A stretch of 64,000 bases of DNA from Candidatus Woesearchaeota archaeon (GCA_964513145.1 CAZELK010000001.1:1-64000), one strand, 5' to 3'. Counted from the stretch's first letter, positions 2,966 to 25,084 are shown. Numbers and translations are program-made. Notes: a model not told the origin generated them from the letters alone.

Positions 2966-2999
2966 AAAGTATACATCTCTAATATCCTTCTTCAAACAA

Positions 3000-4146: not shown

Positions 4147-4933
4147 TCTTTTATTTTTAGAAGTACTTTTTCTTTGCATAGCAGGTGCATATTGTGTGTC
4201 GAACCTTCGATAACTTCCACTCTCATTCTTGGAGTAGATTTTTTTATTCTAAGGACATGTTCTTTTGTTGACGTTGGCGAAAGCATATCAGATTGAAAAA
4301 CAAGAATGGGCTTGTTCAAAGAAACTATTTTCTCACGAACATCATACCCTTGGTAAATATAAAGATTGCGCTCTAAGGCGGATAAAGGAGTGTTTAGGAA
4401 ACTTTTTTCTTGTATCTCTTTATCCGAATTCTCAGTGCCATAAATGTGATATGGTTTGTTGGGATAAAATTTTCCTTTAGCCGCGTCCAAGTATTTTCTC
4501 TGCAAATCTTCAATAGCTTCCCTCTGAAATAGCATCAGGGGGTTGACAAAAAAAGGATCAAATAGTACAAGCGATTGAATAAGATGCTTTGTTGCAAGAA
4601 GCAAAGCTGCTGCGGCACCATGAGAATGGCCGATAATAATGCTGGACTCTACTTTCTCTTTTTGAATTATTTGTAGTAAGAGATCGACCTCATTGAACAG
4701 GGTTCTATGCCCATAGTCAGTCGAATATCCATGGCCCGGAAAGTCTACTGAAATTTTTTTGTAAGAGTCGGGAAATAGTTTAAGAATATGCTCCCCTGCA
4801 CTGTGGTTTTGACCATCGCCATGGAAAAAAAGCACTGATCTCTGTGATTTTCCCTGAACAAAATAGACAAGTTCACCAGACGTGTGACTGATGCTACAGT
4901 ACCTCTTTTTTTTTTTTTTTTATAACCCCTCAT
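4122..4933 (-). CDS. Alpha/beta hydrolase, 5' end frameshifted in a poly(A)16 tract
   Basis: GHSHG nucleophile elbow, DFPGHG, C-terminal His. The frame extends upstream of 4835 (...SGELVYFVQGKSQRSVLFFHG) to the homopolymer. ATG at 4933 is out of frame. Confidence 0.75.
4906..4921. repeat. Homopolymer T16 (A16 on the coding strand)
   Basis: Directly visible. Confidence 0.95.
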
Positions 4934-5116
4934 CCAATATATCTAATCTAATATATATATATCGCTGTATGTATTGAATAACAACCCCATGATAAAAATA
5001 AGGGGCATGGATAAAATACAACCCCTTAAAATAATCCTCATCATCAATGAGTAAAATATTATAATTTCCTCATTATAAATGAGAAGATTTAAATAGTAGA
5101 CACGTCCATAGTTATA

Positions 5117-6382: not shown

Positions 6383-6606
6383 CAAGAATGCACTGAACTT
6401 AAAAATTCTTCCGTATATGCGCTTTTAGATATACAATTTTCTAAGATGAATATGTTATATTTGATTTGATCTCTTAATTAAAGGTCTTAGCTTCTTGATA
6501 TATCAGATGTATCTCGACATCCGCTGCTTTCTTGAAGCAGACCAGCAGGTTGATATCTTTGTCTTTCTTAGCCCTATCCATCTAAACGTTTTTCCATCCT
6601 TCACTG

Positions 6607-6636
6607 CTAAAATAATATTAAGAAAAAAACAGATTT
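6607..6636 (+). promoter_or_regulatory. Viral late-promoter-like motif, copy 1
   Basis: CTAAAATAATATTAAGAAAAAAACAGATTT, identical at 12080-12109. Confidence 0.7.
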
Positions 6637-6644
6637 GTCTGTTT

Positions 6645-7565
6645 ATGTCTGAACAAATCATTAAAGAGATAAAAGAATTCATCGATTCTGAAGAGTCACA
6701 GGACTCAAAGCAGCTTATAGACAATTTTATCTCTTACAATGATTCGACTGTAAAAGAGATCAATCTATTCATTGAATTTTTGCAAGAATTTGAAGACGAA
6801 GAGGATGAGCAAGACCCTGATGACGAGTTAGGAAAACTCGCTGAGCGATGGGAAGAAACGAAAAACGAAATTGCTTGCGTGTTAGAAGATTCAGGCATGT
6901 TCATTGGTGAATCTTTCAGAAGGAAATACTTAGGCAACGGAATTTCTATTCTCATCGGCGTTCTTAAAGAAGCAGGGACTGGGCAGTTTGCAATTCACAG
7001 TTTCAAGTTTGACAAAAGAGAACCTCATAACTGGACTCTTGAAAGAGCTCAGGAATGGATGGACAACAGACGAGTAATAGACAATTCTTCAAGGCTTCAC
7101 AAGAACCTGAAATTTGTTCAAATTAAGAACATCAAGATCAAGCAGGTTCTCAAAGATGGAACTGCTCTGCGGATCACTGGCATTGCTTTGAGTGAGGGCG
7201 AGTGGAACGGCATTTATTATCCTGCTGAAGAACTTGAAAGATCATACAAATCTCTTGAAGGAAAGCCTCTAAGGATTGATCATTCTTCAAGTTCACGTGA
7301 TATTGTTGGGAAGGTCATCAAGTCAGTCTACAACCCTGGGAAGAAGTGGATTGAGTTTGAGGCCATCGTAACAGATGAGGACATAGCACAGAAACTGCTT
7401 GATAAGCTGATAGATTCTGTGAGTGTCGGTGTGCTGATAGACAGCGAAGAAGAGAACGGGCGTCAGGTAGCTCGCAATCTTGAGTTTAAAGAATTGAGTC
7501 TGGTAGATGATCCAGCATGCAAAGATGCAAAATTTGAACCTGTAAAAGAAGGAGGAGATGATTAA
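6645..7565 (+). CDS. Prohead (capsid maturation) protease with acidic N-terminal extension
   Basis: KPLRIDH, VSVG and ELSLVDDPA protease motifs. Start reassigned to ATG 6645, downstream of the promoter motif. Confidence 0.8.
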   Translation: MSEQIIKEIKEFIDSEESQDSKQLIDNFISYNDSTVKEINLFIEFLQEFEDEEDEQDPDDELGKLAERWEETKNEIACVLEDSGMFIGESFRRKYLGNGISILIGVLKEAGTGQFAIHSFKFDKREPHNWTLERAQEWMDNRRVIDNSSRLHKNLKFVQIKNIKIKQVLKDGTALRITGIALSEGEWNGIYYPAEELERSYKSLEGKPLRIDHSSSSRDIVGKVIKSVYNPGKKWIEFEAIVTDEDIAQKLLDKLIDSVSVGVLIDSEEENGRQVARNLEFKELSLVDDPACKDAKFEPVKEGGDD

Positions 7566-7567
7566 CA

Positions 7568-8029
7568 ATGGCTGAACCAAAAGAAATGGAACAAGCAAAG
7601 TCTCTTTTGAAAAAAGCCTCAGATGAACTTGCTGCTAAGACGCAAGAGATCACAAAGCTGGAGAAAGCTGTGTCTGAAAAAGATAAGCTGATCTCTGAAC
7701 TTACTGCCAAGCATGAAAAGCTTGCCAAGGGCTTTGAAGAGGCATCAAAGGAACTGAAGCAAATCAAGCAAGAAACACGAGACGTTGCACTCAAAGAAGT
7801 CATTGATGCTGAAGAAAAACTTGGCATCCTTGAAGTATCAAAAGATGATAGGCTGGCCGAGCTGAGACAGCTTGATGAATCTGGCGGATTTGATCTGTAT
7901 GCCAAGCAGACGAGAAAGATGATTGGGTTGCACAAGAGTGTAGGCGAAAGAAAGACACTGGTCAACAACTCGAATCAGATGGCAGACAAAAAACAGGAGA
8001 TTGCTCAAGCACTGGGCATCAAGCTGTAA
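7568..8029 (+). CDS. Capsid scaffolding protein (coiled coil)
   Basis: Heptad-rich, lies between protease and capsid genes, GGAGG RBS. Confidence 0.65.
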   Translation: MAEPKEMEQAKSLLKKASDELAAKTQEITKLEKAVSEKDKLISELTAKHEKLAKGFEEASKELKQIKQETRDVALKEVIDAEEKLGILEVSKDDRLAELRQLDESGGFDLYAKQTRKMIGLHKSVGERKTLVNNSNQMADKKQEIAQALGIKL

Positions 8030-8043
8030 GGAGGTAAAGCAAA

Positions 8044-8418
8044 ATGACATACGATATCACAATCGATGATGGAAAGAATCCAAGCATGCTCGTTGCAGCT
8101 GCAAACTTGCAGAAGGGCCAGTTTGTAGGGCTGAATCTTCAACCCGCAAGCGCTCAAGCAGATGTCCTGGGTTTATGTCTGAGAGACACTGCTCAAAACA
8201 ATCCTATCTCAATCGGCTGCATAGGAACATTCTATGTTGACGTTGAGGTTGCCGCAGCAGCAACGCTGAATGTGGGCGACGAGCTTGAAGTCAAAGACTC
8301 AAGCACACTGCAAAAAAAGAACACAGGAGTGGTCGTGGCAAAAGCTTACGAGAAAGTTGACAACTCATCTGGCGGAGGCGCTGTTGTCAAGAAAGTCCCT
8401 GTGAAGATCGTAAAATAA
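8044..8418 (+). CDS. Capsid decoration/cement protein (DUF2190-like)
   Basis: About 120 aa, Ala/Gly/Val-rich beta pattern, immediately before the MCP. Confidence 0.6.
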   Translation: MTYDITIDDGKNPSMLVAAANLQKGQFVGLNLQPASAQADVLGLCLRDTAQNNPISIGCIGTFYVDVEVAAAATLNVGDELEVKDSSTLQKKNTGVVVAKAYEKVDNSSGGGAVVKKVPVKIVK

Positions 8419-8432
8419 AGGAGGCAAGCAAA

Positions 8433-9239
8433 ATGAAAACCATGCAAGAACTGTTTTCGACACAGGATGCTGCACCTCTCATAAAAGAAGTGATCGACTC
8501 CAATGTGTTCAAGGTTGCTCAACGTGAAAGGGTTGGCAGGAAGATATTGAGAGTTATCACTCTTAGCGAGGGTTCAGCCCTGAAAATCCCAAAGATGGGA
8601 AATGGTCAGGCGTATGTAGTTCCAGAACTTGGAGCTATACCTTTGGATGTGAGCACATTCAACGAGGTCGTCGTGACACCTTACAAGATTGGCAAAGCTT
8701 TCGCTATTGCCAAGGAATCCATTGAGGACTCAGCTTTTGATGTCGTGAGACTCAAGGCGGACATGGCTGCAGAAGATGTTGCCAGAAAAGAAGATGATGA
8801 AATCTTCAGGGTGGTGACTCAGACCACAAACACAGTCCCTCCAAAGACTGCCGGACAGTTTGTCCAGGAAGATGCCATCACACTGAGAAACGCTGTGAAC
8901 AAGAACAATTACAGGGCCAAGTTCCTGGTAGGGCATCCTGATGATCTTGCCAAGCTGGAAAAAGACCTGATTAGCAAAGGCTACAAGGCTTTTGACAGGC
9001 TTGATGAAGAAGGCATCATGGGCAACGTGGCTGGCCTGCAAGTTGTCGAAACCACAGCTGTAGAGCCTGGTACAGTCCTTGCTCTTGATAATAGGGCAGT
9101 CGTGCTGGTTGAAAGACGGCCTCTCTCAACTGAGAACTTCACCGATCCTTTGAGGGATTTGGCAGGAGGAGTTACCATAACAGAGAGAGTAGCTCCTGCA
9201 GTGCTTGACGACAACGCTGTCGCAAAGATGACCTTGTAA
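8433..9239 (+). CDS. Major capsid protein (HK97 fold)
   Basis: Position and size, EGSALKIPK E-loop-like segment, LVGHPDD, C-terminal ERVAPAVLDDNAVAK. Confidence 0.8.
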   Translation: MKTMQELFSTQDAAPLIKEVIDSNVFKVAQRERVGRKILRVITLSEGSALKIPKMGNGQAYVVPELGAIPLDVSTFNEVVVTPYKIGKAFAIAKESIEDSAFDVVRLKADMAAEDVARKEDDEIFRVVTQTTNTVPPKTAGQFVQEDAITLRNAVNKNNYRAKFLVGHPDDLAKLEKDLISKGYKAFDRLDEEGIMGNVAGLQVVETTAVEPGTVLALDNRAVVLVERRPLSTENFTDPLRDLAGGVTITERVAPAVLDDNAVAKMTL

Positions 9240-9290
9240 AGGGTCATCTAAACTGCAGGACTCTGCTATCTTTTTGGCAGGTGATGTACT

Positions 9291-10028
9291 ATGGACATAA
9301 GTAGCTTGAAGACTGAAATAATCGTGGAATCAAATAAGTACAGGATAGGTCAGAAGCTCCTTAGGGTTCAGAAGCAGAGCGAAGGATCAGCCACTAAGAT
9401 AACCAAAATAAAGGGCATTAACGGAGCCGTTGTTCCCGCATTGGGATCTGCTCCACTTTCTCTTTTAGACGTTGAATCAGTCATAGTATTTCCTCTGACA
9501 CTAAAGAGAGCAATTCTTTTTTCTGCAGAGAATTTTGAAGACAATGCGTTAAATGAGATTTTTCAGAAATCATTGCAGGAGACATTTCATTTTGCTCAGA
9601 TTGAGAACAAGCTTGTTGTTGACACCCTCATTGCAGGAGCTGGCAAAACCATTGCTTCTCAAAGCAAGCCCAATGTTCGGGAAATTCCGATCCTTGACAA
9701 CTTCATTGAAGCAATCAAATTTATTGAAGAGAACAGGTATCACCCTGACAAGATTCTCATCAATCCAGGAATAGCTGAATCATTAAGGCAAAGAGATGAA
9801 CTCAAAGAGAAACTCATATCTTATGCTATCGAAGTGCTTGTCGAATCAAGTGTTCCTTCTGGTGCGGTTGTTGTTCTTGATTCTCAGCATGCTGGGATAA
9901 TGATAGAACGAATCCCTTTAGAAATTGAGGATTACGCTGATCCTTGGAAAGGATTGAGAGGTTTTATTCTCAGAGAAAGAGTCGTGCCAGTCGTCATCAA
10001 TGGAAATGCAGTGGCGGTGATATCATAA
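9291..10028 (+). CDS. Second, paralogous capsid-like protein
   Basis: Aligns by eye to the MCP: RIGQKLLRVQKQSEGSATKITK vs RVGRKILRVITLSEGSALKIPK, and ERVVPVVINGNAVA vs ERVAPAVLDDNAVA. Confidence 0.75.
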   Translation: MDISSLKTEIIVESNKYRIGQKLLRVQKQSEGSATKITKIKGINGAVVPALGSAPLSLLDVESVIVFPLTLKRAILFSAENFEDNALNEIFQKSLQETFHFAQIENKLVVDTLIAGAGKTIASQSKPNVREIPILDNFIEAIKFIEENRYHPDKILINPGIAESLRQRDELKEKLISYAIEVLVESSVPSGAVVVLDSQHAGIMIERIPLEIEDYADPWKGLRGFILRERVVPVVINGNAVAVIS

Positions 10029-10597
10029 TGGGAATGGATATCGAACTTCTGCAAGAGTTGAAAGCAGTCATTGCTGAACTCAAGTCATTTATCAGCACGC
10101 TGAAAATAGAGCAGGATGGAAGCATAAATACAAACATGACAGGAATTATAAATGTTGAATCAGTCTCAATCGCTGATCCTGTAAACCAGAATCAAAAAGC
10201 ATTAGTTGATAGTTCAGGAAGACTTCTTGTATCTACACCACCCCCAACACCTCCACCAAATACGACTCCTATAATTTTGACTGGTTTCGGCGCTGTTTCA
10301 GGAAATTCAGACTCCTTGCATGTGATCACACCAGGCAAGAAACTCGTTATTGGAAGATTACTTGCAGGAGCAGAAGAGATGACTAAAGCAGGAAGAATAA
10401 CCCTCTATGAAAATCCTGACGGGAATAATATCACCCTGAACCTTGTGGCAACATTGTATGTCAATGGCAGTTCTGATGTTGCAGACTTATCTGAAACATT
10501 TCAAGGTAACGGAACAAGACGAATGGTGCTGAGAAGAACTAATTTGGGTGGCGGTAGCAAGGAGCTGTTTGCACGCTTTGAAGGATACGAGGAATAA
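10028..10597 (+). CDS. Putative virion structural protein
   Basis: TAATG coupling to the upstream gene, Pro-rich linker, beta-rich C-terminus. Confidence 0.55.
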   Translation: MGMDIELLQELKAVIAELKSFISTLKIEQDGSINTNMTGIINVESVSIADPVNQNQKALVDSSGRLLVSTPPPTPPPNTTPIILTGFGAVSGNSDSLHVITPGKKLVIGRLLAGAEEMTKAGRITLYENPDGNNITLNLVATLYVNGSSDVADLSETFQGNGTRRMVLRRTNLGGGSKELFARFEGYEE

Positions 10598-10599
10598 GA

Positions 10600-10836
10600 A
10601 TGGCAACTGTCCAAGAAACATTATCAAGCATCGAGAACAAGACAGGACATATTCCAGGTTCATTGATAGTTCATAGCATGGACGAAAAAGGAGCAGTAAT
10701 CAAATGGCTTGAAGATAATGCAGGAGCTGCTGAAAGAAAAAAGATGTTCCTTCAGCTTGATCCTAATGAGAAGGATTTGGCATTCGAACAAAGGACAACT
10801 ATACTCATGATAGACGTCGAGCCTGCAGGTGGTTAA
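10600..10836 (+). CDS. Hypothetical viral protein
   Basis: Tightly packed in the operon. Confidence 0.55.
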   Translation: MATVQETLSSIENKTGHIPGSLIVHSMDEKGAVIKWLEDNAGAAERKKMFLQLDPNEKDLAFEQRTTILMIDVEPAGG

Positions 10837-10838
10837 AA

Positions 10839-10994
10839 GTGGCAAATTGGAAGTACAAAGTTGTAAGCAAAAGGATCAAAGACATTTCAGAAGAAGCTCT
10901 CGATACATTAGGAAATAATGGATGGGAACTCATATTCATGAGTCAGTTATGGAACGGCAAAATCATTGCTGTATTCAAAAAAGAAAAACCTTGA
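10839..10994 (+). CDS. DUF4177-like small protein (GTG start; not in track)
   Basis: WKYKVV...LDTLGNNGWELI motif, GGTGG RBS. Confidence 0.7.
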   Translation: MANWKYKVVSKRIKDISEEALDTLGNNGWELIFMSQLWNGKIIAVFKKEKP

Positions 10995-11004
10995 GGTGAA
11001 AAAC

Positions 11005-11226
11005 ATGGCAAATAAAACACAAGAATACGATTGGAAGCTTAGGCTAAAACTTGGCCTGAAGAGATTCCTGAAAGGATTTGCAGCTACAATGCTGGTCGCA
11101 GGAGTTCAGTACGGAGTGCAATTTGTTCAATCAAGCCCTGACCTGTTCCCACAAGAATCTGCACTTGCAGGTATCTTGATATCAGGATTGCTTGCTTTAG
11201 AGAAAGCTCTTCAAAAGCAGAAGTAA
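11005..11226 (+). CDS. Small membrane protein, holin-like
   Basis: Two hydrophobic segments, basic ends, GAGGTG RBS. Confidence 0.5.
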   Translation: MANKTQEYDWKLRLKLGLKRFLKGFAATMLVAGVQYGVQFVQSSPDLFPQESALAGILISGLLALEKALQKQK

Positions 11227-11227
11227 C

Positions 11228-11710
11228 ATGGTACAAAAAGAATATTCGACAGTGGCAATAGTAAAAGCCAGAGTGGGAGAAACCCATATCGACTCTGACA
11301 TTCAAGATAGTGAGATCACTCAATGGATCAGAGAAGCAAGTAATTTCATCGACGTTAGCACCAAGAAAGTTGGAACTGGCTTCGAGGAGACTGATGCCCT
11401 CTATCCATTAATTCAACAGATTGTGACAGATCTGGCAGTGATTAAGCTATTGCTGAGAATGAACACTACTGGCAAAGAAACCACAGCAGGATTGTCTTAC
11501 AGAATTGGAGACTTTTCTGTCGATAAGAAAAACATAGAGTCTTCTTCTGTCAAGGAGATAGTGATCTATGAGAAAAGTGCCAAAGACAGTCTTGAAACAC
11601 TGAAAGAATATTTAGGGATTAATAGCGGAGGATTTGTTGGGGGATCAGTAGTTCGTGGAGTTCCTGCTCCAAGCACTAATTACGGAAGCAATGACCCTCA
11701 GCAACCATAA
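11228..11710 (+). CDS. Head-tail adaptor-like protein
   Basis: YSTVAIVKARVG...ITQWIREASNFID pattern and position. Confidence 0.6.
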   Translation: MVQKEYSTVAIVKARVGETHIDSDIQDSEITQWIREASNFIDVSTKKVGTGFEETDALYPLIQQIVTDLAVIKLLLRMNTTGKETTAGLSYRIGDFSVDKKNIESSSVKEIVIYEKSAKDSLETLKEYLGINSGGFVGGSVVRGVPAPSTNYGSNDPQQP

Positions 11711-11713
11711 ACG

Positions 11714-12088
11714 ATGGATATCAACTCGGAAGATTTCAACAGAATAGTCGACTTTGACATAGGTGTAAATGTAACTCTCAGACGAAAGACCCAAACGATT
11801 GATCCTGACTACGGAAGCCTTGTATCTGATTCACATGAAGATCATTCCATCAAATTAGTCTGGCAAGAAGTAACAGGAGAAGAGGAAAATTTCCGACCAG
11901 AAGGAGAGTTTAAGATTGGCGACATTAAATGCTATGCCAAAGATTCTTATGAAAACGAAACTCTAATCCCGGATAGCAAAACTGATTCTATTCTTAAAGA
12001 GGGGGTAGAATATAAAATTGTCAAGTCCACAGCAAGAACAGTGGGAGATATCATCATCTATCGTCTCTTGCAGTTGCGACTAAAATAA
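11714..12088 (+). CDS. Head closure-like protein
   Basis: VTLRRK...GD..CY...D.I..EGVEYKIV beta-barrel pattern and position. Confidence 0.6.
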   Translation: MDINSEDFNRIVDFDIGVNVTLRRKTQTIDPDYGSLVSDSHEDHSIKLVWQEVTGEEENFRPEGEFKIGDIKCYAKDSYENETLIPDSKTDSILKEGVEYKIVKSTARTVGDIIIYRLLQLRLK

Positions 12089-12109
12089 TATTAAGAAAAA
12101 AACAGATTT
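12080..12109 (+). promoter_or_regulatory. Viral late-promoter-like motif, copy 2
   Basis: Exact 30-bp match to 6607-6636. Confidence 0.7.
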
Positions 12110-12118
12110 CTGAATTGT

Positions 12119-12481
12119 ATGGTTAAGATCAAAGTCATAAGCCCAGACCTCGCAAAACTGGGCAAAAAGGTTGCTGATCTTAATGACAAGGGTTTCAAGA
12201 AAGACGTGCATGAAGGAATCAGGAAAGTGCTTCCTTTGATTCACAGGGATGCTGTCCTGAATGCCCCTAAAAAAACAGGGCTGCTATCAGCATCGCTTCA
12301 TGTCGGCTTTGAAGATGAAACCACAGGATACATTGCAGACGGAGTTTTTTATGGTGTGTTCCAAGAGGAAGGCACTCGATATATAGCTCCCAAGCATTTC
12401 ATGCGTAATGCTGTCAATAAGAATTTCCCAAGTGTGGGAAAAGAAGTCACAACAATCGTGAAGAAGCACTTCAACCAATGA
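12119..12481 (+). CDS. HK97 gp10-like tail/neck protein
   Basis: APKKTGLLSAS, YGVFQEEGT, PKHFMRNAV. Confidence 0.8.
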   Translation: MVKIKVISPDLAKLGKKVADLNDKGFKKDVHEGIRKVLPLIHRDAVLNAPKKTGLLSASLHVGFEDETTGYIADGVFYGVFQEEGTRYIAPKHFMRNAVNKNFPSVGKEVTTIVKKHFNQ

Positions 12482-12514
12482 AGGCATCTCTTCAAGAGCG
12501 AGGAGGCCAAACGA

Positions 12515-12976
12515 ATGGATAAAGAACCGATCATCATAGTGCAGGATCTCCTGAGAGGTCAGCTGTATGATTACAATACTTCTCGTTCTGGCGAATGGAT
12601 ATATCCTGATTTCCCAAAAATCAACTTGAGCAATAATTCCTATCCCAGGGTTTCAGTAACAGACTCGGATGAGCCAGCAAGAAAGTTCAGTGTTGGCACA
12701 AAATCTGAGATGCAGACCGTTGATATTGACATCAACATCTGGGTGAAAAACGGCATCATTTACGAGCGGAACAGTGAGCAGTTTGAAGGTGCAAAACTGA
12801 GAGACGCAATAGCTCGTGAAATAGTGGATGCGATAAGATTGAATCAGGATGCATTAGCCGCATCAGGGTTGCATAATTACGAGAGAATCGGGATGAAGAC
12901 GATAAACTCCGAGATAACAGAAGGACTGTTGAGAAAACAGATTACTGTGCGGTTTTCAAGGCCAGTAATCATATAA
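12515..12976 (+). CDS. Tail terminator-like protein
   Basis: YPRVSV, VDIDINIW pattern, immediately before the tail tube gene. Confidence 0.6.
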   Translation: MDKEPIIIVQDLLRGQLYDYNTSRSGEWIYPDFPKINLSNNSYPRVSVTDSDEPARKFSVGTKSEMQTVDIDINIWVKNGIIYERNSEQFEGAKLRDAIAREIVDAIRLNQDALAASGLHNYERIGMKTINSEITEGLLRKQITVRFSRPVII

Positions 12977-12999
12977 AAAAACAAGGAGGATGAATCAAA

Positions 13000-13151
13000 A
13001 TGGCCATATTTTTTGGAACGCAAGGTTCGATCACGATTGACACTGTTCAATCAAAGAACATAACCGAGTGGAGTCTGTCAACAAGTGCAGATGTCGAGCA
13101 AATCAAGACCATAGGTAACTTCACTATTTTTGATGAGAAACCGTTGGGCTT
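13000..13151 (+). pseudogene. Tail tube protein, N-terminal fragment only
   Basis: MAIFFGTQGSITID...ITEWSLSTSADVEQIKTIG with AGGAGG RBS, then runs into hsdR sequence out of frame. Confidence 0.6.
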
Positions 13152-16308: not shown

Positions 16309-17911
16309 ACATACTCCCCAAAATTTAGAACTCGATGAGAAAAAGATTTCTTACGAAGAAATCTTATCAAGAGCCCAAGTAGAGAGGCTATACGATTCTT
16401 CTATTAATGAGACCGCAAAAGTGCTTTACAGCGCAAGTTTCTTGGAAGACGGGAAAGATATAATCAAGGATGCAAAAGAGAGACTCTTGAAAGAGGATCC
16501 ACGAAAATTGTTCCTTAACTGTATCAAATATATAGTTGATAATATCCAAAGAAGTCAGCAATCGAGAAAATATTTTTGGGTTGAGAAACTTGATGTTTTA
16601 GCTATTCGTGGCTTGGGAATCAAAATTGATGATCTTGAATTTATGGGAAAAGATTCAAACAATATTTTCAGAGCACAACCAAAATGGGATAAAATTGAAG
16701 AGCATATCAATAAGGTCGTTCTAGGAAAAACATTTATTGAGGAAGTTTCAGTGCCAAGTGATACAGAGTTATGGGGGGATGAATTCCCTCTTAGGATGAG
16801 TTCTTGCGATGCTTCACAACACCGACTAAAATTAACAGTCCCTTTTTTTAACATAAATTTTTCAACACCAATAATAGTCAATAATGCTGCAGGAGTCGTC
16901 AAAGAAAGAAAGCAAGACCGCCCCGAATGGTTAAATATTGTCGTACCGAAGAATACTCAAGATTTTGAGGATTGGGTTATTATCGGATACGAAGATTACA
17001 CTAATTTAAGTGAGGGAGATTATGAATGGGCTGCAAAAGCAGCAATGGATGTGGGACAGTATTTTGTAGAAGAAGTCTATATTCTCCCGTATGGAGGCGC
17101 TGCAAAGAGACCAGATATTCATTTGCGTGATGGTAGGGCATTTCCACAGGATAAAGCAATGAATTGCAAGCTGCAAAATAGGCATGGCCAATTAACAAGA
17201 GAGTCTATTTGGAGGATGTGTACAACCCTCAAAAAAGCTAAAGAACTTAATGTGATCTATTGCGGTGTTTCGAAAAATGTGCAATTGAAAATATTCAGTA
17301 CAATAATCGACTGGTATATTCGAGAGGTCATGAAAGAAGAAAAATGGAATTCAACAGGACATGTTCTCTCAGATACTGATGTTATGAGATACTTTTTACA
17401 TAACCAAAAGTTTGACAGCACATTCAAGAACATCTATGTTACCTGCAAAGTGATCAGATCGTTTTATACAACATCAAACTTCAATGCAAGGACTGACCAT
17501 CAATTTCAGAATGATTTAAACTCATTGGGAGGAATATATCATAACAGAGATCTCTCTGCGAAACAAATCGTTGAAGAAGCACTGAAATACAAAGTCGCCA
17601 TGTTTTTTGCTGGGCATACAAACAGCAACGAGTATTATATCCCTCGATATGAATTTGTTATGTACGATGAGGACGTCGATAAGGTAGACAAAATTGTATT
17701 AAAAATATTATCTGCCCTTAGATTGGGTTCATTCCTGGTCGATTCTGATCATATGAGAGATATGGAAAAGCCAATATTGATTCCAGTACCAATGAATTAC
17801 TCACATGATCTCAGCAAAGCTATGGGCAATATTCTCGCTAAAGATTGGGTAAATAGAACATATGCTGAATTTGTAAAGTTAATTAGGAATAGACCAAATA
17901 ATAACACGTGA
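16298..17911 (+). CDS. nurA: NurA-like nuclease with N-terminal extension
   Basis: SCDAS, LRDG, GVSK and C-terminal PVP..YSH..SK correspond to NurA motifs. Overlaps the herA stop. Confidence 0.6.
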   Translation: MASEHTPQNLELDEKKISYEEILSRAQVERLYDSSINETAKVLYSASFLEDGKDIIKDAKERLLKEDPRKLFLNCIKYIVDNIQRSQQSRKYFWVEKLDVLAIRGLGIKIDDLEFMGKDSNNIFRAQPKWDKIEEHINKVVLGKTFIEEVSVPSDTELWGDEFPLRMSSCDASQHRLKLTVPFFNINFSTPIIVNNAAGVVKERKQDRPEWLNIVVPKNTQDFEDWVIIGYEDYTNLSEGDYEWAAKAAMDVGQYFVEEVYILPYGGAAKRPDIHLRDGRAFPQDKAMNCKLQNRHGQLTRESIWRMCTTLKKAKELNVIYCGVSKNVQLKIFSTIIDWYIREVMKEEKWNSTGHVLSDTDVMRYFLHNQKFDSTFKNIYVTCKVIRSFYTTSNFNARTDHQFQNDLNSLGGIYHNRDLSAKQIVEEALKYKVAMFFAGHTNSNEYYIPRYEFVMYDEDVDKVDKIVLKILSALRLGSFLVDSDHMRDMEKPILIPVPMNYSHDLSKAMGNILAKDWVNRTYAEFVKLIRNRPNNNT

Positions 17912-17914
17912 AGA

Positions 17915-18955
17915 TTAATCGGCAATGAATAACATCTCTTTTGTACTTCCATTGCTGAGAGCATACTTATAATCTTTCATCTTAATTGTGGGACGCTTAC
18001 CTTTATGCTTCACAATGATATCAACAATTTCTTTTTTAGTAGGAATACCATCATTTCTATACGATAAGACGATGATGCTGTCTTTGAAGTGTTCAATCAT
18101 TTTATCGAACAAATCAATTATTTGTTCACGATCTAACCATCTGCTAATCTTCTTATTTTCAACCATTTTTTTTAGTGAAGAGGAATGATCTATTTTTCCA
18201 CTCCATTTTTTATAATCATTTAACCCCTCGAGGAAATGATAATAGGCATGATAATTTATTCTGCTATTTTTTGATAAGTAAGGCGGGTCAAGGTACACAA
18301 GGTCAACTTTGTTCGGAAGGTTGAACACGTCCTTTCCTCCAATGACAGTATTCTCTTTTCCATTATCAAAAACTGCTCTATTATACTCATCCACAAATTT
18401 GGTAAAATGAACGAGAAAAGGTGTATCCCATGACACTTTATTTCCAAAATTACGAGGCACATCATTCATTCGTAGACTCAAATTGTTTCGATGGAACAAA
18501 TTGAATGGTCTCTTGATTAAGCACGCTTGAAACAAAGCCGACAATGCTATTGCTCGTTTGTACTTATTCTTGATTTGATGTATGTTTGTTATTGTTTTAT
18601 CCAGCCAATCATTCTCTTTCCTTGTAAAGTATATTTTATTGAAGGTATCCCGAATAAATGTTGGATATTGAATATCATCTCTTTTCTTTAAGATATCAAT
18701 AATATCCTCTTCTGTGAGAATAGTCCTTTTATTCTCTATGAGAGCCAAACCAATTTGTTTATTGAAATTCAGAACATCGTTATAATAAACAGTTTTTCCA
18801 TTCTTTTTGAAAAGATAACCGACACTTGAAGTTCCGCCAAAGGCATCCAGTACAGTCTCAAATTTTAAGTGCTTCGTGTTATCCCATATCCAATTAAGAA
18901 GCTTAACCTTGCTTCCGAGGAATCTCGTTGATGGAAAATTATAGATGTTGCTCAT
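17915..18955 (-). CDS. N6-adenine DNA methyltransferase (D12/Dam-like class)
   Basis: RFLGSK, DAFGGTSSV, YLDPPY. Confidence 0.9.
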   Translation of the reverse strand: MSNIYNFPSTRFLGSKVKLLNWIWDNTKHLKFETVLDAFGGTSSVGYLFKKNGKTVYYNDVLNFNKQIGLALIENKRTILTEEDIIDILKKRDDIQYPTFIRDTFNKIYFTRKENDWLDKTITNIHQIKNKYKRAIALSALFQACLIKRPFNLFHRNNLSLRMNDVPRNFGNKVSWDTPFLVHFTKFVDEYNRAVFDNGKENTVIGGKDVFNLPNKVDLVYLDPPYLSKNSRINYHAYYHFLEGLNDYKKWSGKIDHSSSLKKMVENKKISRWLDREQIIDLFDKMIEHFKDSIIVLSYRNDGIPTKKEIVDIIVKHKGKRPTIKMKDYKYALSNGSTKEMLFIAD

Positions 18956-19119
18956 TTTTTGTTTCTCTTAATCGTTTTGATCTCTTTTAGTACTAAATTG
19001 CCATTGTCATCCAATTGGATAAGTAGTTCAGTTCCTTTCTTCCATCCTGTGGCCCTCATGATGTTCTTCGGGATCGTAATTCCTGATTGTCCTTTGTTGG
19101 TTTCTTGGATTTTTACCAT
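18952..19119 (-). CDS. AbrB/MazE-like regulator (55 aa; not in track)
   Basis: GQSGITIPKNIMRATGWKKGTEL. ATGA overlap with the MTase start. Confidence 0.75.
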   Translation of the reverse strand: MVKIQETNKGQSGITIPKNIMRATGWKKGTELLIQLDDNGNLVLKEIKTIKRNKK

Positions 19120-19196
19120 TGGAATATTTCTTTAATATTTGATAACTATTTATCTAATAGTATTTAAATATTCCTATTTTGAAGGCTTATTTCTGA

Positions 19197-19215
19197 TAAA
19201 ATAATATTAAGAAAA
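19197..19215 (+). promoter_or_regulatory. Viral late-promoter-like motif, copy 3 (19-bp core)
   Basis: TAAAATAATATTAAGAAAA. Confidence 0.65.
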
Positions 19216-19232
19216 GAATGAACTCAGTCTGT

Positions 19233-19493
19233 ATGGATCTGTCAGCCACTCAAAGAGAATTATCTGAATTGAGAGCATCAATTGAAGAAGTTAAATCTGA
19301 ACTCACACTTGCTCTGACAAAGGTCAGCGACAAGCTTGCCACTCAGTCTCAGAATTATCTTGAGCTCAGAGCGAAAATAGACAGGCTAAGCAATGTCTGT
19401 GCAGTCGAAGAAGACCAAGCAGATATTTACGGATTTGCCGAGGTGCAACATGAACATAGTAGTCGAAATACTGATATTAATCCTGCTGATTAA
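19233..19493 (+). CDS. Small coiled-coil protein
   Basis: Heptad pattern. Start moved to the second ATG by promoter spacing. Confidence 0.6.
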   Translation: MDLSATQRELSELRASIEEVKSELTLALTKVSDKLATQSQNYLELRAKIDRLSNVCAVEEDQADIYGFAEVQHEHSSRNTDINPAD

Positions 19494-19629
19494 GACCCTT
19501 AATCTAAATGCAGCTTTGATCTGGATCATTTATGCAGTAAGCAAGATTCTCGGCCAATTCTACATCATGTGGGAAGAGGGCCTAAGACAGACGTTCTTGA
19601 CTCATTTCAAGAAGAAAAGCAGACGATGA
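19450..19629 (+). CDS. Small membrane protein with basic C-terminus
   Basis: GAGGTG RBS, long hydrophobic N-terminus, KKKSRR tail. Confidence 0.55.
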   Translation: MNIVVEILILILLIKTLNLNAALIWIIYAVSKILGQFYIMWEEGLRQTFLTHFKKKSRR

Positions 19630-19841
19630 ATATGAAATTCAGGATATCCAGCCAAGGTGGGCTCGTAGTGACGCTTCAAGAACTCGTCGATATGAATAGA
19701 GTGGGATTCAAATACAAAATCAATCATAAAACAAAAGACCTTATTGTGCTCAGGAATTTCCTGACTAAGGAGATTAATCAAAGATTGAGAGGTGCTAACA
19801 ATGGCAAAGAAAATCCTGCAAAGGATCAAAAGCGACCATAA
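19626..19841 (+). CDS. Hypothetical viral protein
   Basis: Overlap-coupled to the upstream gene. Confidence 0.5.
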   Translation: MNMKFRISSQGGLVVTLQELVDMNRVGFKYKINHKTKDLIVLRNFLTKEINQRLRGANNGKENPAKDQKRP

Positions 19842-19896
19842 GATCAGAATCTCATTGTGGGAACGGATCAAGAGGTTTATTCATCGAATAATTTGA
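19801..19896 (+). CDS. 31-aa basic amphipathic peptide
   Basis: GAGGTG RBS, MAKKILQRIKSDHKIRISLWERIKRFIHRII. Confidence 0.4.
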   Translation: MAKKILQRIKSDHKIRISLWERIKRFIHRII

Positions 19897-20317
19897 GGAA
19901 TTCATTAGCCTCCTTGACTTTCTCAGCCATAGGTTTTAAATCCCATAATTGCTGGATAAGTTCGTCTTTGTTCAAGTCATTCATCATAACAAAGTAATGT
20001 TCTTTGTAATCCTTGAGTTTTTCTTTAAGCGGAACTCTCTCGCTTCTGCGTTCTATAAATCCAACATATCGAGGATAATCATAGCCAGATGTGTCCACAA
20101 GCAAGAGTTCATCTTCTTCTATTAGTTGCACTCTCCAAAATTGGTGCCCTGAAAGGTCTGCTTTGCTCAATGCTTCCCAAGAATCAAAAACTGCTTCGTT
20201 CACGTCAGTGCTCTTAGTGATCTCAGGTAGTTCTGCAAGAGTAATCTTGGCTGTCGCTTGCTTTTTGATATCGTTCAGATCCACTGGCTTTCTCGCCATC
20301 AGTATTCGTTTATTCAT
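19877..20317 (-). CDS. Hypothetical viral protein (VDTSGYDYPRY motif)
   Basis: GGAGG RBS, motif familiar from mobile-element proteins. Confidence 0.6.
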   Translation of the reverse strand: MNKRILMARKPVDLNDIKKQATAKITLAELPEITKSTDVNEAVFDSWEALSKADLSGHQFWRVQLIEEDELLLVDTSGYDYPRYVGFIERRSERVPLKEKLKDYKEHYFVMMNDLNKDELIQQLWDLKPMAEKVKEANEFLKLFDE

Positions 20318-20351
20318 GTTATATACCTCCTCTATTCTTTTCTTATTATTT

Positions 20352-21236
20352 TTAGTCCAGCGTTGCTTTCTTGATAGTGTGCTTTGAGAACAGCTGGTTT
20401 TGCATGAGCGCTAATGCTTCTTCTTCAGCTATTTTTGTCGGGGCAGTGCAAGCCTCTTTTTGCGGTGTAATCACCACCTTGACAAGTTCAGTGAGCTGCT
20501 TAATCTGATCTTTCAAATCGCTGATCTCTACAGTATGTTGCTCTTCTGTTGTATTGAAGACACTCTCAACGATATCTCTTTTTGCTTTCATGCTGGTTTT
20601 GATGTATCGCTCTGTGCTTCTCAAATTCTTGTGCCTGCCGCAGATCTGTGCAGCAAAAACACCTTTCTTATCGCATATCTTTTGGAGATAATAGTGCCTT
20701 AGTGTATGGTAACTTAGCACAGAAAGTTTATGGCCTGAGTTGGATGTTGAGTACTTATGATCCAGTCCAGCCTCTTTTCTGATTCTCATTACTCTTGTTC
20801 GTATCGTTCCTGGACTCAGGTGCTTGTGTCCTGCATTGCCATACTTTCCAGTGAGAGGTGGCCTGCCGCAGTGCCACATTCTTCCATACCTCTGTCGCCA
20901 GAAAATATAGTTATCCGACAGCACTATCTCTGATTTGTAAGTAAGGATGTGGTCTTTTAACCGTTCAAGCATGAAGTCAGGAATGATGATCTTCTCGAAC
21001 CTTTCTTTATTCTTCTGCTCGGGAAGCAGCAATGTCTTTTCAACAAAATCAATGTGGTCAACTTTTATCCTGCAGGTCTCAATGCTTCTTAATCCGAGCT
21101 CACTCGCACAATAGAAGATGTTCTCCCAAAACTTGACATAGTCAGTGTCGTATCTTGATTCGACGTCTCTGACGGCTTGCATGTACATATTGAATTGCGC
21201 TTCTGTTATTGATTTTGCTTTTGCTTCGTGTACCAT
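20352..21236 (-). CDS. Tyrosine recombinase, copy 1
   Basis: GLR, QKN, YHTLRH, GRH and TERY: R-K-H-R-H-Y set present. Confidence 0.85.
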   Translation of the reverse strand: MVHEAKAKSITEAQFNMYMQAVRDVESRYDTDYVKFWENIFYCASELGLRSIETCRIKVDHIDFVEKTLLLPEQKNKERFEKIIIPDFMLERLKDHILTYKSEIVLSDNYIFWRQRYGRMWHCGRPPLTGKYGNAGHKHLSPGTIRTRVMRIRKEAGLDHKYSTSNSGHKLSVLSYHTLRHYYLQKICDKKGVFAAQICGRHKNLRSTERYIKTSMKAKRDIVESVFNTTEEQHTVEISDLKDQIKQLTELVKVVITPQKEACTAPTKIAEEEALALMQNQLFSKHTIKKATLD

Positions 21237-21484
21237 TTTGCAAAGTCACCTCCGCAGCATTCATCCATGAGTGCCCTGCCAACTTCTATGAGAAAAGCAT
21301 CCTTTGGCACTTGCACATTGATAAAACCAAAACAAAATCGTGCTTCTTTTTCTCTTAATTCGATGTCAAAATCGCCCTCTGATTTGACGGTGATCCTCTT
21401 TTGATTCTCAGCGTCCCAAAGAGGTGCTTTATTGAAATCTTCTGTTAAGAGAAATATTTCAACGCTCTGCTTGCATGTGGGCAT
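21206..21484 (-). CDS. Hypothetical viral protein
   Basis: Coupled in the minus-strand operon. Confidence 0.5.
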   Translation of the reverse strand: MPTCKQSVEIFLLTEDFNKAPLWDAENQKRITVKSEGDFDIELREKEARFCFGFINVQVPKDAFLIEVGRALMDECCGGDFAKWYTKQKQNQ

Positions 21485-21834
21485 TACAGATCACCCCACA
21501 GTTTCTTCCGTAGTTCCTTTGTATAGCTGACGAGTTCGTCTGTGGTTACGCTTGTGCCAGAGAGAATGCTTGCAGCTGCTTTCAAGCAAACCTGAAGATG
21601 AATGTCATCAGTTACCGGGTCTGATCTGCGTTCAGGTTCTTTCTTGGTGTTTTCTGCAGTCTTTATTGTTACGATGTTTTTGTACTTGCCATTGTCCTCG
21701 TAATCAAGCAAGACATAGTCTCCTTTCTGAACAGGGCAGTTTCCGTAACCGCCAAACCATTGCTTGTTGAGGGCAATGCTGTAGGTCTTGTCTCGCTGCT
21801 TTACTGCGTTGATTGTTCCTTGTTCAGTTTGCAT
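21484..21834 (-). CDS. OB-fold-like protein, possible ssDNA-binding protein
   Basis: Aromatic beta-rich N-terminus plus C-terminal helix LQVCLKAAASIL. Confidence 0.4.
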   Translation of the reverse strand: MQTEQGTINAVKQRDKTYSIALNKQWFGGYGNCPVQKGDYVLLDYEDNGKYKNIVTIKTAENTKKEPERRSDPVTDDIHLQVCLKAAASILSGTSVTTDELVSYTKELRKKLWGDL

Positions 21835-22132
21835 CGTTCTTCACCTCTTTCTTGTCCCATTCAGCAAGGCCAAACATTCCTTTGCCTGCTTTTTTGAATC
21901 TGCCAAGGTTGTCGGTTGTCATTCTGGCAAAGATGCTGTTCTGCGGTGTTGTTCCAGCTGACTTGCTTCGCTTGAGAACTTCTTCTGTTATGGCTTTGTA
22001 GTGCATGGGCTGGCCATGCTCCTTGAGGATTTCATAGCACACTTCTCTGTGCGGCAAAAATCCTTCAGAACTCGTTTCTGGCTGTTTCTCCAGCGATACT
22101 TTTATATCTGTCTTTTTCTTTTTTCCTTTCAT
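21824..22132 (-). CDS. HARE-HTH (HB1/ASXL) winged-helix protein
   Basis: EILKEHGQPMHYKAIT...GTTPQNSIFARM...GMFGLAEW. Confidence 0.75.
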   Translation of the reverse strand: MKGKKKKTDIKVSLEKQPETSSEGFLPHREVCYEILKEHGQPMHYKAITEEVLKRSKSAGTTPQNSIFARMTTDNLGRFKKAGKGMFGLAEWDKKEVKNDAN

Positions 22133-22214
22133 GGATATCTACCTCCGGGTGGATGTTCATCGGGATTGAGCGTTTCTTGATAGGGATTCTCAATCCCGTC
22201 ATGATTACATGACT

Positions 22215-22382
22215 CTAATGGGTTTTACATTGCTCCTTTAGGATCACGTAAACCTCCTTTCCTACATGCTTCTTGGTGTAGGGTATCACTGCTCCGTTTC
22301 CTGAAGCTACTACTGTTTTGACTTCGATGTATTCAGGGTCAACGGTTATGGTTTTTGGCTTTATCTTGACTTTTTCTGTCAT
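22215..22382 (-). CDS. DUF2080-like small regulator (not in track)
   Basis: VVASGNGAVIPYTKKHVGKEVYVIL, GAGGAG RBS. Confidence 0.7.
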   Translation of the reverse strand: MTEKVKIKPKTITVDPEYIEVKTVVASGNGAVIPYTKKHVGKEVYVILKEQCKTH

Positions 22383-22639
22383 TGTTATCTCCTCGTTAAT
22401 TGTCTATACTTTATGAGACTTGGATGCTCTACCTTCTATATAAACCTTGTCCTCAAAAACGCCATTTTGTCGACGGAGAGTGCCCTTTCTGATAAGTGAC
22501 ACTTGTCCTATTTGACAACTCGATGTCAAGTCAATTCCTCTCTTATTCTCTTCACAGAAAACAGGGTTTCCGCCATATCGTTCGGTGGACTTGTCAATGG
22601 GAGATAGGACTTATTAAAACACTGGACGGATAAAAAAGC

Positions 22640-23608
22640 ATGAAGGTAAACAACGGCAGGATGCAATTTGGGCACAGGAATGAAGCCCGTGAGAAAACCA
22701 TAACTGACGAACAGTTAGACAGGTTCATCAAGGCCATAAAGTTTACCGAAGAGGACAAGTACATTTTTTTCTGGGAGAATGTCTATTATGCAGCAGCATA
22801 CCTTGGCCTGAGAAGCGTTGAAACCTGCAAGATCAGAATAGAAGATATTGACTTTGTAGAGAAAACACTCACTCTCCCGGAACAGAAAAACAAAGAGCGC
22901 TATGAAAAGATAATCATACCAGATATCTTACTCGACAGATTCAAGAAACACATAATCACTTACAAGCAAGAGATTATATCCAATGGCATAGAATACACGG
23001 GCGTTAGGGACACAGATACGCTTCGAGGGAATTATTACATCTTCTGGAGGCAACGAGGGCCAAGAGGCGGCAAGACAAGAGAAAAGCATATGGCTACCAA
23101 CACGATAAGAACGCACCTGATAAAAACCAGGAAAGTAGCTGGGCTTGACATGAAATACGGCATGTCAAATACAGGCCATGCACTCTCCATTTTCAGCTAT
23201 CATACACTCAGGCACTACTTCTTACAGAGGATCTGCGATCAGCGCGGAGTGTTCGCAGCCCAGATAACAGGACGCCACAAAAATCTCAGAAGCACAGAAA
23301 GATATCTGACAACATCAATGGTCGCAAAAAGAGATATCGTGAACGGCGTATTCAATGTCAAGGAAGAAACAGCCCCTTACGAAGTATCTCAACTGAAGGA
23401 CGAAATAGCTGAATTGAAGGCCCTCATCAAGGAATCTATGATCATCAGCAATGGAAACTCGCAGAACGTGAAAAACCAGAGCAAAATAGCCATAGAAGAA
23501 GCAGAAAGGGCAATGCAGAACAGAGCACTGTATGAAAGCAGGCAGCTCAGAAAGAGCAAACCCGCAACCAACGAGCACAACGTGATGGTCGGCTCATTGG
23601 AACTGTGA
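22640..23608 (+). CDS. Tyrosine recombinase, copy 2 (probable integrase)
   Basis: Same catalytic motifs, closely paralogous to 20352-21236. Confidence 0.85.
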   Translation: MKVNNGRMQFGHRNEAREKTITDEQLDRFIKAIKFTEEDKYIFFWENVYYAAAYLGLRSVETCKIRIEDIDFVEKTLTLPEQKNKERYEKIIIPDILLDRFKKHIITYKQEIISNGIEYTGVRDTDTLRGNYYIFWRQRGPRGGKTREKHMATNTIRTHLIKTRKVAGLDMKYGMSNTGHALSIFSYHTLRHYFLQRICDQRGVFAAQITGRHKNLRSTERYLTTSMVAKRDIVNGVFNVKEETAPYEVSQLKDEIAELKALIKESMIISNGNSQNVKNQSKIAIEEAERAMQNRALYESRQLRKSKPATNEHNVMVGSLEL

Positions 23609-23650
23609 AGCATCAGAAAAATATTTAATGAAAGAAACTTTTATGTTCTT

Positions 23651-23797
23651 ATGGTCTTGGAAAGGAGGAAGAAGTATCAATGTGAGGAATGCAAGCTTTG
23701 GTACAAAGAGAAATCCTGGGCAGAAAAATGCGAGGCCTGGTGCAAGGAGCATCAAAGCTGCAATATCGAGATCACCAGTCATGCGATAAAACCGTAG
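23651..23797 (+). CDS. Small Cys/His-rich protein (not in track)
   Basis: YQCEECKLWYKEKSWAEKCEAWCKEHQSCNIEI. Confidence 0.7.
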   Translation: MVLERRKKYQCEECKLWYKEKSWAEKCEAWCKEHQSCNIEITSHAIKP

Positions 23798-23860
23798 ACT
23801 TGTCCACTTGACACACTTGACAGGGTGGACACAAGGTTTATATCTGAGTCCAGTTATTAT

Positions 23861-23950
23861 GATTCACAGGTTGCCCTAACCGCAATCATTCCAGAAAGGC
23901 ATGAAAGTGGTTATGACGATTTTGGGGAAAGCGTCATAAATCTATGACGG
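23861..23950 (+). ncRNA. Candidate structured RNA at the element boundary
   Basis: AAGGTTTATAT BRE/TATA at 23833-23843, no ORF, stems AACCGC/GTGGTT and TTATGACG/CGTCATAA. Confidence 0.3.
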
Positions 23951-24077
23951 AAATATAAATGTTTTTATCTTGTAATTACTTTTAAGTAACTAAATACTAT
24001 TGTTTTATATTACCCTTTATTTTTATATACTAAGTTTAAAGGGTAAAATTTAAATAGTTTGAAATGATAATAAATTT

Positions 24078-25073: not shown

Positions 25074-25084
25074 TTTTTGTCATA

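Follow-up and report, generated by a model that had tools for sequence, protein, structure and literature searches.

Viruses of DPANN archaea are still known almost wholly from metagenomes, and secure virus–host links are scarce. DPANN virus families were described by Wu, Liu and Ni in 2024 (Nature Microbiology), as cited in PMC13573593, and the systems closest to the one treated here are the Woesearchaeales tailed proviruses (WATPV), named in 2024 (QZIT01000006_pro, 51,544 bp; QMQO01000002_pro, 55,455 bp), which form a clade distant from reference archaeal viruses and for which, in these two proviruses, DISARM and Dnd/Pbe are reported as cargo (PMC11705971). Here we analyse the first 64 kb of contig C1 (hereafter the window) of the Candidatus Woesearchaeota metagenome-assembled genome (MAG) GCA_964513145.1, referred to as G000 (18 contigs, 0.98 Mb, 29% GC; completeness 98.8%, contamination 0.27%), whose source is a small DPANN archaeon of the class Nanoarchaeia. 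We conclude that the segment 6,604-23,965 is very probably the remnant of a temperate, siphovirus-like tailed virus of the WATPV lineage, lying in an island of foreign composition of at least 24 kb in a DPANN chromosome. A preliminary description of the window had read 6607-23950 as an integrated tailed provirus in a DPANN-like chromosome and as a remnant of a little-known virus group; integration is borne out by the conserved terminus, the broken host synteny and contigs across the junction, and a remnant it is, although the group already had its name. The features of the element, from left to right, are as follows.

6607-6636, plus strand: promoter-like motif, copy 1 (30 nt, A/T-rich), before the protease gene; homology to all relatives begins here
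6645-7565, plus strand: putative prohead protease, 306 aa, with an acidic N-terminal extension (phrog_36109, 1.2e-8; weakly phrog_80, 3.6e-4)
7568-8029, plus strand: coiled-coil scaffold-like protein, 153 aa, placed by position and coiled-coil matches
8044-8418, plus strand: decoration/cement-like head protein, 124 aa (phrog_673, 2.7e-6; weakly PF09956, Phage_cement_2)
8433-9239, plus strand: HK97-fold major capsid protein (MCP), 268 aa (PF05065, 2.5e-21; phrog_10, 6.5e-23)
9291-10028, plus strand: second, divergent capsid paralog, 245 aa (31% identical to the MCP, E 7.7e-22)
10025-11226, plus strand: four small conserved virion-module genes, ~190, 78, 51 and 73-86 aa, with orthologs in all relatives
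11228-11710, plus strand: putative head-tail adaptor (weak leads: phrog_541, E 0.044; an Atlas cluster, 30% of its members with PF05135)
11714-12088, plus strand: head closure protein (phrog_161, 6.6e-5)
12080-12109, plus strand: promoter-like motif, copy 2, preceding the Neck1 gene
12119-12481, plus strand: Neck1/tail-completion (gp10-like) protein (phrog_5, 1.5e-16)
12515-12976, plus strand: protein in tail-terminator position, 153 aa, placed by position
13000-13164, plus strand: tail tube gene, first 55 codons, ending at the breakpoint 13164/13165
13165-14807, plus strand: 5'-truncated type I restriction R subunit (hsdR), C-terminal half only, a pseudogene fragment (PADLOC REase_I model, 499-720 of 1029; PF22679)
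14791-16308, plus strand: HerA-type ATPase, intact (family match)
16256-17911, plus strand: 551-aa protein of a widespread unannotated family
17915-18955, minus strand: D12/type II adenine methyltransferase (family match)
18952-19119, minus strand: MazE/AbrB-like protein, 55 aa (family match)
19196-22400: early/regulatory module with promoter-motif copy 3 (19196-19225) and small genes, in the same gene order in relatives; a 116-aa protein lies within it, with homologs in order in relatives
20352-21236, minus strand: tyrosine recombinase 1 (PF00589, 1.8e-12)
21824-22132, minus strand: HARE-HTH protein (PF05066, 4.8e-13)
22640-23608, plus strand: tyrosine recombinase 2, 322 aa, the terminal integrase (PF00589, 1.4e-10)
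23797-23965, plus strand: right arm and attR, conserved in the window, the loci L007 and L009 and the genomes G243 and G244
23797-23834, plus strand: doubled CACTTGACA motif of the right arm
23912-23949, plus strand: co-varying triple 7-nt motif of the right arm
23954-23964, plus strand: att core TATAAATGTTT of attR

Between 6,604 and 13,164 the window is collinear with five IMG/VR contigs and seven MAG loci at 67-74% nucleotide identity, their MCPs being 86-90% and 81-90% identical to that of the window, respectively, and the MAGs mostly labelled Woesearchaeota or Nanoarchaeota; similarity to all these relatives ends at 13,142-13,164. The MCP scores 76.7 bits against PF05065 (cut-off 24.2), which gives it the HK97 fold of the Caudoviricetes, and it also matches PDB 6wkk_A, ‘Gp27 major capsid protein’, at 4e-5. 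A Bacillus phage, at 24% identity, is its best match in a set of 50,697 deposited phage records; the close relatives (81-90%) are proviruses in MAGs with mostly archaeal labels and IMG/VR contigs. The MCP thus groups apart from bacterial phages, and the grouping that would have refuted the preliminary description is not seen. Complete relatives of 51-55 kb consist of attL, methyltransferase/ParB, terminase, portal, a variable slot, a late head–neck–tail operon, defence cargo, early genes with two recombinases, and attR, with TerL (PF03237) and portal (PF04860) recognisable upstream of the operon. The corresponding genes of the window form a single co-directional operon from 6,645 to 13,164, and all surviving viral open reading frames are full length relative to their orthologs. 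The protease (60-68% identical to orthologs; phrog_80 is a head maturation protease) and the decoration-like protein (70-83%) are each conserved, a gene in the scaffold position exists in related proviruses, and the tandem of 268-aa capsid protein and 245-aa paralog (8433-10028) recurs in every relative examined, for example at L003 10001-11583. The four small genes at 10025-11226 gave no family match in family searches.

The complete ordered module from protease to tube that had been claimed for this operon is therefore only partly there. Its order and its MCP and Neck1 genes stand where they had been placed, and the head closure, protease and decoration roles draw weak but consistent matches; the adaptor has leads only and the terminator its position, the tube is a 55-codon stump with neither portal, terminase nor tail gene to accompany it, and the second capsid paralog and the four small genes had been omitted. 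A claim of promoter-type motifs fared better. The 30-nt motif at 6607-6636 is identical to that at 12080-12109 and has a 77% copy at 19196-19225, before the early genes; it is 94-100% conserved at matching places in relatives (L003 8498; L005 8182 and 13718; L001 6681), where coding DNA is only ~70% identical, and it behaves like a late promoter or operator, as yet putative, of the whole lineage. An inverted partial copy of the motif lies at 20334-20353.

Relatives carry at the tube position a protein of 155-157 aa (157 aa in L003), and behind it come two genes of chaperone size and a tape-measure protein of 1369 aa (PF10145, 1.3e-44); a full-length tube relative matches phrog_290 (tail) at 7e-5. 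In the window, the sequence to the right of 13164/13165 enters the middle of hsdR without a start codon, the hsdR helicase motif running straight on from the breakpoint. Contig L050 (run SRR12113422) follows the window for 4.1 kb at 99.95% identity as far as 13164, beyond which it runs on into an intact tube gene of at least 144 residues, aligned throughout with the 157-aa protein of L003; contigs from two further runs end at precisely 13,164, a sign that the assembly graph branches there, and L051 crosses the 13.16-kb junction at 100% identity. A scan of JGI metagenome contigs returned no intact-tube allele. Judged from these contigs, the deletion is recent and polymorphic, near-identical contigs of the same sample series carrying the intact tube gene, and a less damaged copy appears to persist in the same groundwater community (contigs with intact tube; a left flank with an att-like motif). 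The most economical history would be a single deletion that fused tube codon 55 to mid-hsdR, at the start of the cargo region, and that would have taken with it the tail genes and all that lay between them and hsdR. Searches of all 18 MAG contigs with the relatives’ proteins (tblastn) found no TerL, portal or 1369-aa tape-measure gene; window and MAG are thus without the terminase and portal, and without the tail genes (tube, tape measure), by which Caudoviricetes are recognised.

At its other end the element is much better preserved. The gene order at 19.2-23.6 kb (small genes, recombinase 1, 116-aa protein, HARE-HTH protein, recombinase 2) is that of the far right end of complete proviruses, with homologs of the early module in the same order in the complete proviruses of G243 and G244 and in the remnant L007, and the small regulators and recombinases of the preliminary description are present as a HARE-HTH protein and two tyrosine recombinases. 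Recombinase 2 shows the catalytic Arg, His-x-x-Arg, His and Tyr in translation, and in five other genomes an ortholog, 66-77% identical, stands immediately before attR as the final gene; an exact-protein look-up of this integrase returned no record. The last ~170 nt of the element are conserved in five genomes, including the sequence CGGAAATATAAATGTTT at the right terminus, and beyond the att core the five sequences diverge into differing host flanks. Two PF00589 recombinases accompany an element–host junction at a terminus common to four other genomes. The att core was identified in QZIT01000006, where the distance between the outer limits of a direct repeat of 13 nt, TATAAATGTTTCG, is 51,544 bp, exactly the published length of the provirus; the att motif is also written GATTTATAAAT(G/C)TTTCG. 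We suggest that a tyrosine recombinase integrated the virus at the TATA-box-like core TATAAATGTTT, in an intergenic site.

Beside the att core, a 7-nt word present in three copies (direct, inverted, direct) varies jointly between elements (TATGACG, TGTAGCG, TGTAACG), as seen in the window at 23912-23949, in L007 at 17093-17137 and in L009, L038 and L041. The second and third copies would form a hairpin, two pairs of which show compensatory changes, and the copies are predicted to be either co-evolving recombinase binding sites or alternative hairpins.

Immediately beyond the terminus the window becomes ordinary host chromosome.

24078-33622: host chromosome with Fic, a PEP-synthase-like gene, PIMT, aIF2-gamma and GyrA, syntenic with three same-genus genomes

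The first 24 kb of C1 have 35-45% GC, and elsewhere in the MAG 5-kb windows stay at or below 36%, one stretch of contig C3, taken for the rRNA operon, excepted; genes of the island all lie at 33-48% and host genes at 24-29%, and the drop from 40% to 27% coincides with 23,954-23,964. To the right stand the archaeal core genes aIF2-gamma (TIGR03680, 607 bits) and GyrA, and a host protein on a neighbouring contig has near relatives labelled ‘Nanoarchaeota archaeon’ and remoter ones labelled ‘Candidatus Woesearchaeota archaeon’; the earlier wording of a DPANN-like chromosome with adjacent core DPANN genes is therefore justified. In three same-genus genomes the ortholog of the gene at C9:767-1570 lies 0.3-0.9 kb from the PEP-synthase gene, and in the present MAG these two genes stand at the starts of contigs C9 and C1; the island is therefore inserted between them, and the element breaks an otherwise conserved host gene order, as an integrated provirus would.

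Across the 240 genomes of the host’s GTDB order the capsid gene occurs in G000 only, and a single genome carries it in an even sample of 400 from the host’s class. Since none of the 239 other genomes of the order has the gene, the published WATPV host genomes should lie outside that order, and from these tallies, which do not involve order names and whose 240 genomes do not include those of the described proviruses, we infer that the present host lies in a GTDB order other than that of the described WATPV hosts. Together with a gap of 10-15 points between the GC of element and host, the tallies suggest a recent acquisition of the element across lineages. Elsewhere in the MAG, 27 residues encoded at C2:6366-6446 share 74% identity with the product of a small gene that precedes the L003 protease gene (7809-8120, minus strand), and this stretch may be the trace of another related element. 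A comparison of the island with the rest of the MAG gave no spacer-like exact matches.

Several points weigh against this reading of the locus as an integrated, decayed WATPV-lineage virus. The adaptor, terminator and tube roles are supported by weak matches or by position, single-sequence AlphaFold2 (AF2) models being too poor for use (pLDDT 31 for the ‘terminator’, 49 for the full-length tube relative). The intact alleles are known from assembled contigs, and their physical linkage to the host is at most putative. In base composition the element (40-48% GC in the head genes) differs widely from its host (29%), and no other genome of the host’s order carries the capsid gene, and the link to the host therefore rests on the junction contigs and synteny. 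Finally, contig C1 ends on the left before the island does, so that terminase and portal could sit in an unassembled or unbinned piece, and the exact point from which homology to relatives extends, the promoter motif, is one at which they too carry variable cargo.

The isolation of the capsid gene within the order, the abrupt GC step at 24 kb and the position of the foreign part at a contig end could also be explained by an artefact, a foreign contig having been misjoined to or misbinned with the DPANN chromosome, and the doubtful labels on some related contigs would be in keeping with this. Continuity was checked with single-run Logan contigs rather than raw reads, and these tile 167-25,616 free of gaps, crossing the junctions at 6.5, 13.16 and 23.96 kb. 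The 23.95-kb junction, which the preliminary description had named as the point at which its reading could be refuted, is real: it is crossed by L045 (23,802-25,616, 100% identity) and, in a different run, by L055 (19,529-24,779, 99.85% identity), and it falls exactly at the conserved right terminus shown by the same virus type in four other genomes. Moreover, the break in host synteny is at the same locus, and related proviruses lie deep within contigs of 92-421 kb. The contig is not chimeric and its ~24-kb high-GC end is genuine, which makes an artefact of assembly or binning highly improbable. As to the labels themselves, a ‘Cloacimonadota bacterium’ contig matches in the same way as a Woesearchaeota one of the same study (L010, JAIPIH010000012.1; L011, JAIPET010000001.1), and L008 (CAYFJV010000001.1) is labelled Methanosarcinales with a genome of ~1.2 Mb; both labels probably reflect mistakes of binning or labelling in the public records.

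The left part of the island, as seen in a Pfam scan of 1-6603, carries the following genes.

2-1852, minus strand: partial surface protein
within 1-6603: HTH_10 regulator, FcoT-like protein, methyltransferase and hydrolase (Pfam matches)
5117-6382: AAA_14/DUF4143 ATPase (Pfam matches)

These genes have 34-39% GC, as against 24-28% for the ATPase’s paralogs in the MAG, and are without homologs in the related proviruses; three single-run assemblies (L042-L044) run without a break from this region into the head module, which confirms the continuity at 6.4-6.6 kb that had been singled out for checking. It may be cargo in the portal–protease slot of the virus or unrelated island DNA. The AAA_14/DUF4143 family has 10 copies in the 0.98-Mb genome (the window copy and nine at other places); the island copy has 35% GC, compared with 24-28% for the others, and its nearest relative, 65% identical, lies in another genus of the same family.

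Two alleles occur at the left host flank, C9:1-46 of the MAG and L060 6250-6353, C9 starting 45 nt upstream of the point at which L060, with 1 mismatch in 6,249 nt, diverges. L060, from the same sample series, keeps the native start of a 120-aa host gene, whose N-terminus is identical at 12/22 residues to the gene at the same position in G135 (E 0.001), and reads GATTTATAAATCTTTCG ~60 nt upstream of that start; the attL of G243 and G241 reads GATTTATAAATGTTTCG. In the MAG allele (C9:1-45, also in L061) the host sequence is instead joined to 45 nt of untraced origin, and this allele has neither the att-like motif nor codons 1-8 of the host gene. From this comparison, the left junction of the MAG strain has lost its att site together with 8 codons of the neighbouring gene. 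A search of the MAG with the attR region gave chance A/T-rich matches only, and no attL/attR direct repeat brackets the element, C9:1-45 being without attL. L060 may represent either an intact attL or an empty attB, the 17 nt beyond the core being too few to choose, and a search for contigs that would extend it returned the same contig only. The GATTTATAAATCTTTCG of L060 overlaps an apparent archaeal TATA box. The host gene beside the attL of G243 is not homologous to that in the present host; the shared target is the short motif and not a conserved gene.

These observations bear on a second history, in which the tube–hsdR deletion is the only one and the left arm (terminase, portal, attL) lies in the gap beyond C1:1 or remains unbinned, 1-6.6 kb being cargo of the portal–protease slot. 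The point at which homology sets in lies, for every relative, no more than a few bases from the 30-nt motif; the portal stop or variable cargo (~10 kb of it in L005, L007 and G244) comes directly before it in the relatives, and such a start fits 1-6.6 kb being cargo with the portal further to the left. In addition, 1-6.6 kb has wholly foreign GC, the MAG contig and the Logan contigs both break inside the surface-protein gene, and the L060 allele keeps an att-like motif whose final 8 bases agree with those at the left end of the G243 phage. Set against this, the MAG allele at C9:1-45, found again in L061, is without the motif and the 8 codons, so that attL is gone in that strain, and a MAG of 98.8% completeness contains neither TerL nor portal. 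We therefore consider this history unlikely, if still worth keeping in mind, and favour loss of the left arm over its non-assembly in the MAG strain. In L005 (6474-8150), L007 (6800-8506) and G244 (L039, ~15727-17400) the space from portal to protease is taken up by a reverse transcriptase (RVT_1 plus HTH_40) and large genes on the minus strand; this ~10-kb cassette is probably a diversity-generating retroelement in the variable slot.

With no terminase or portal, no tail genes and no attL, the remnant is incapable of packaging DNA, building a tail or excising precisely. Two further loci show the same kind of reduction. L007 (JAUYKZ010000002.1) and L009 (JAUSJN010000008.1) likewise have capsid genes joined to a recombinase/attR end with the same terminus, but neither carries the hsdR/HerA cargo: L007 keeps attL, unlike the window, jumps to the early genes after the 78-aa head gene and has its portal cut to 110 aa, and in L009 the capsid paralog is fused to a 5'-truncated integrase. 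By their gene content, both loci derive from the same lineage through deletions of their own, with breakpoints elsewhere. Such recurrence of derivatives in which deletion has spared capsid genes and the right end, the intactness of all head–neck reading frames behind a strongly conserved promoter motif, and the co-occurrence of a near-identical, more complete virus could also be expected of a domesticated or parasitic capsid-forming element, similar to a satellite or a gene transfer agent, dependent on an intact co-resident virus for packaging and tails. Yet the window has no terminase, portal or small terminase and the MAG strain no attL; the tube gene and hsdR are cut in the middle of their codon series, as by accidental deletion; and the capsid paralog and integrase of L009 are themselves truncated. 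Capsid retention is, moreover, a selection bias, the three remnants having been found by capsid-protein search, near-identity to the intact allele means that the reading frames have had no time to decay, and absence of the element from the 239 other genomes of the order gives no sign of long-term conservation as a host function. A domesticated or parasitic element is thus very unlikely, and decay of a WATPV-lineage virus by deletion remains the preferred reading.

The reach of the provirus as first drawn, 6607-23950, has to be qualified: the head–neck operon and the early end are viral, and 13165-19190 between them, an hsdR fragment and a HerA/methyltransferase cassette, is not viral structural DNA. 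Directly upstream of the ortholog of the window gene at 19,218-19,493, QZIT01000006 has its Dnd/Pbe genes, and the hsdR fragment and HerA cassette of the window fill the same slot. The order HerA, ~530-aa protein, D12 methyltransferase and 55-aa protein is found without hsdR in another archaeal chromosome (L067 7481-11815), and we accordingly rejected the hsdR fragment as part of a HerA operon, the four-gene cassette recurring elsewhere without it. The cassette is a candidate mobile defence or modification system, and IMG/VR holds no close relatives of the HerA or AAA_14 proteins. Homologs of the 551-aa protein, ~50% identical, occur in bacteria of the candidate phyla radiation (CPR) and in other bacteria. 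What has survived the deletions intact are the head–neck genes behind the 30-nt motif, both recombinases and the HerA/551-aa/methyltransferase/MazE-like cassette, which probably still serves the host as a predicted defence or modification module.

The locus ties the WATPV lineage physically, by a junction seen in several assemblies and by broken synteny, to a host apparently outside the order of its description. What is new is this host order, deletions resolved to the base and still polymorphic, and the survival of defence cargo; it is not a new kind of virus or mechanism, the element being a defective member of an already described lineage. It also gives a pattern for the decay of such proviruses, with a breakpoint mapped to the base, the undeleted allele present and remnants in two other genomes, and suggests that HerA/methyltransferase defence-gene cargo outlasts the death of the virus. 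For annotation, it follows that the ~24-kb high-GC end of the contig should not be trimmed as contamination. More speculatively, and with considerable doubt, one lineage (capsid 81-90%) may integrate at a TATA-box-like sequence across at least two orders of Nanoarchaeia whose hosts differ by ~10 points in GC, a more complete and possibly active copy coexisting with the deleted derivative in one host population; were this true, it would provide what is rare for DPANN viruses, a tractable system linked directly to its host, and the host range would be unusually broad.

Compared with the described WATPV, the window copy has an MCP 88-90% identical and orthologous head–neck and right-end genes in the same order, which places it in the lineage, and it shares the paired tyrosine recombinases, the conserved right terminus with its att core and the position of defence cargo upstream of the early genes. 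It differs in lacking the left arm, the tail and the interval from tube to mid-hsdR; in its cargo, an hsdR fragment with HerA/methyltransferase in place of DISARM and Dnd/Pbe (the latter confirmed here for QZIT); and in its host, which has ~29% GC and 0.98 Mb as opposed to the 1.3-1.6 Mb of the described Woesearchaeales hosts, and which, by the tallies rather than by named taxonomy, appears to fall outside Woesearchaeales. With archaeal tailed viruses at large (arTV, Caudoviricetes) it has in common the HK97-fold MCP and, in its complete relatives, the set of portal, TerL and tape measure; no deposited virus is close, the best of the 50,697 records being the 24% match. Bacterial cryptic prophages, such as the remnants in E. 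coli K-12, are reduced by deletion, keep integrase, some structural and accessory or defence genes, and form no particles. Similarly, the present element is an integrated tailed-virus genome cut down by deletions that has kept integrase, some structural genes and defence genes; it is set apart from them by its DPANN archaeal host, its archaeal-type promoter motifs, its very recent decay and a less damaged allele still in the population.

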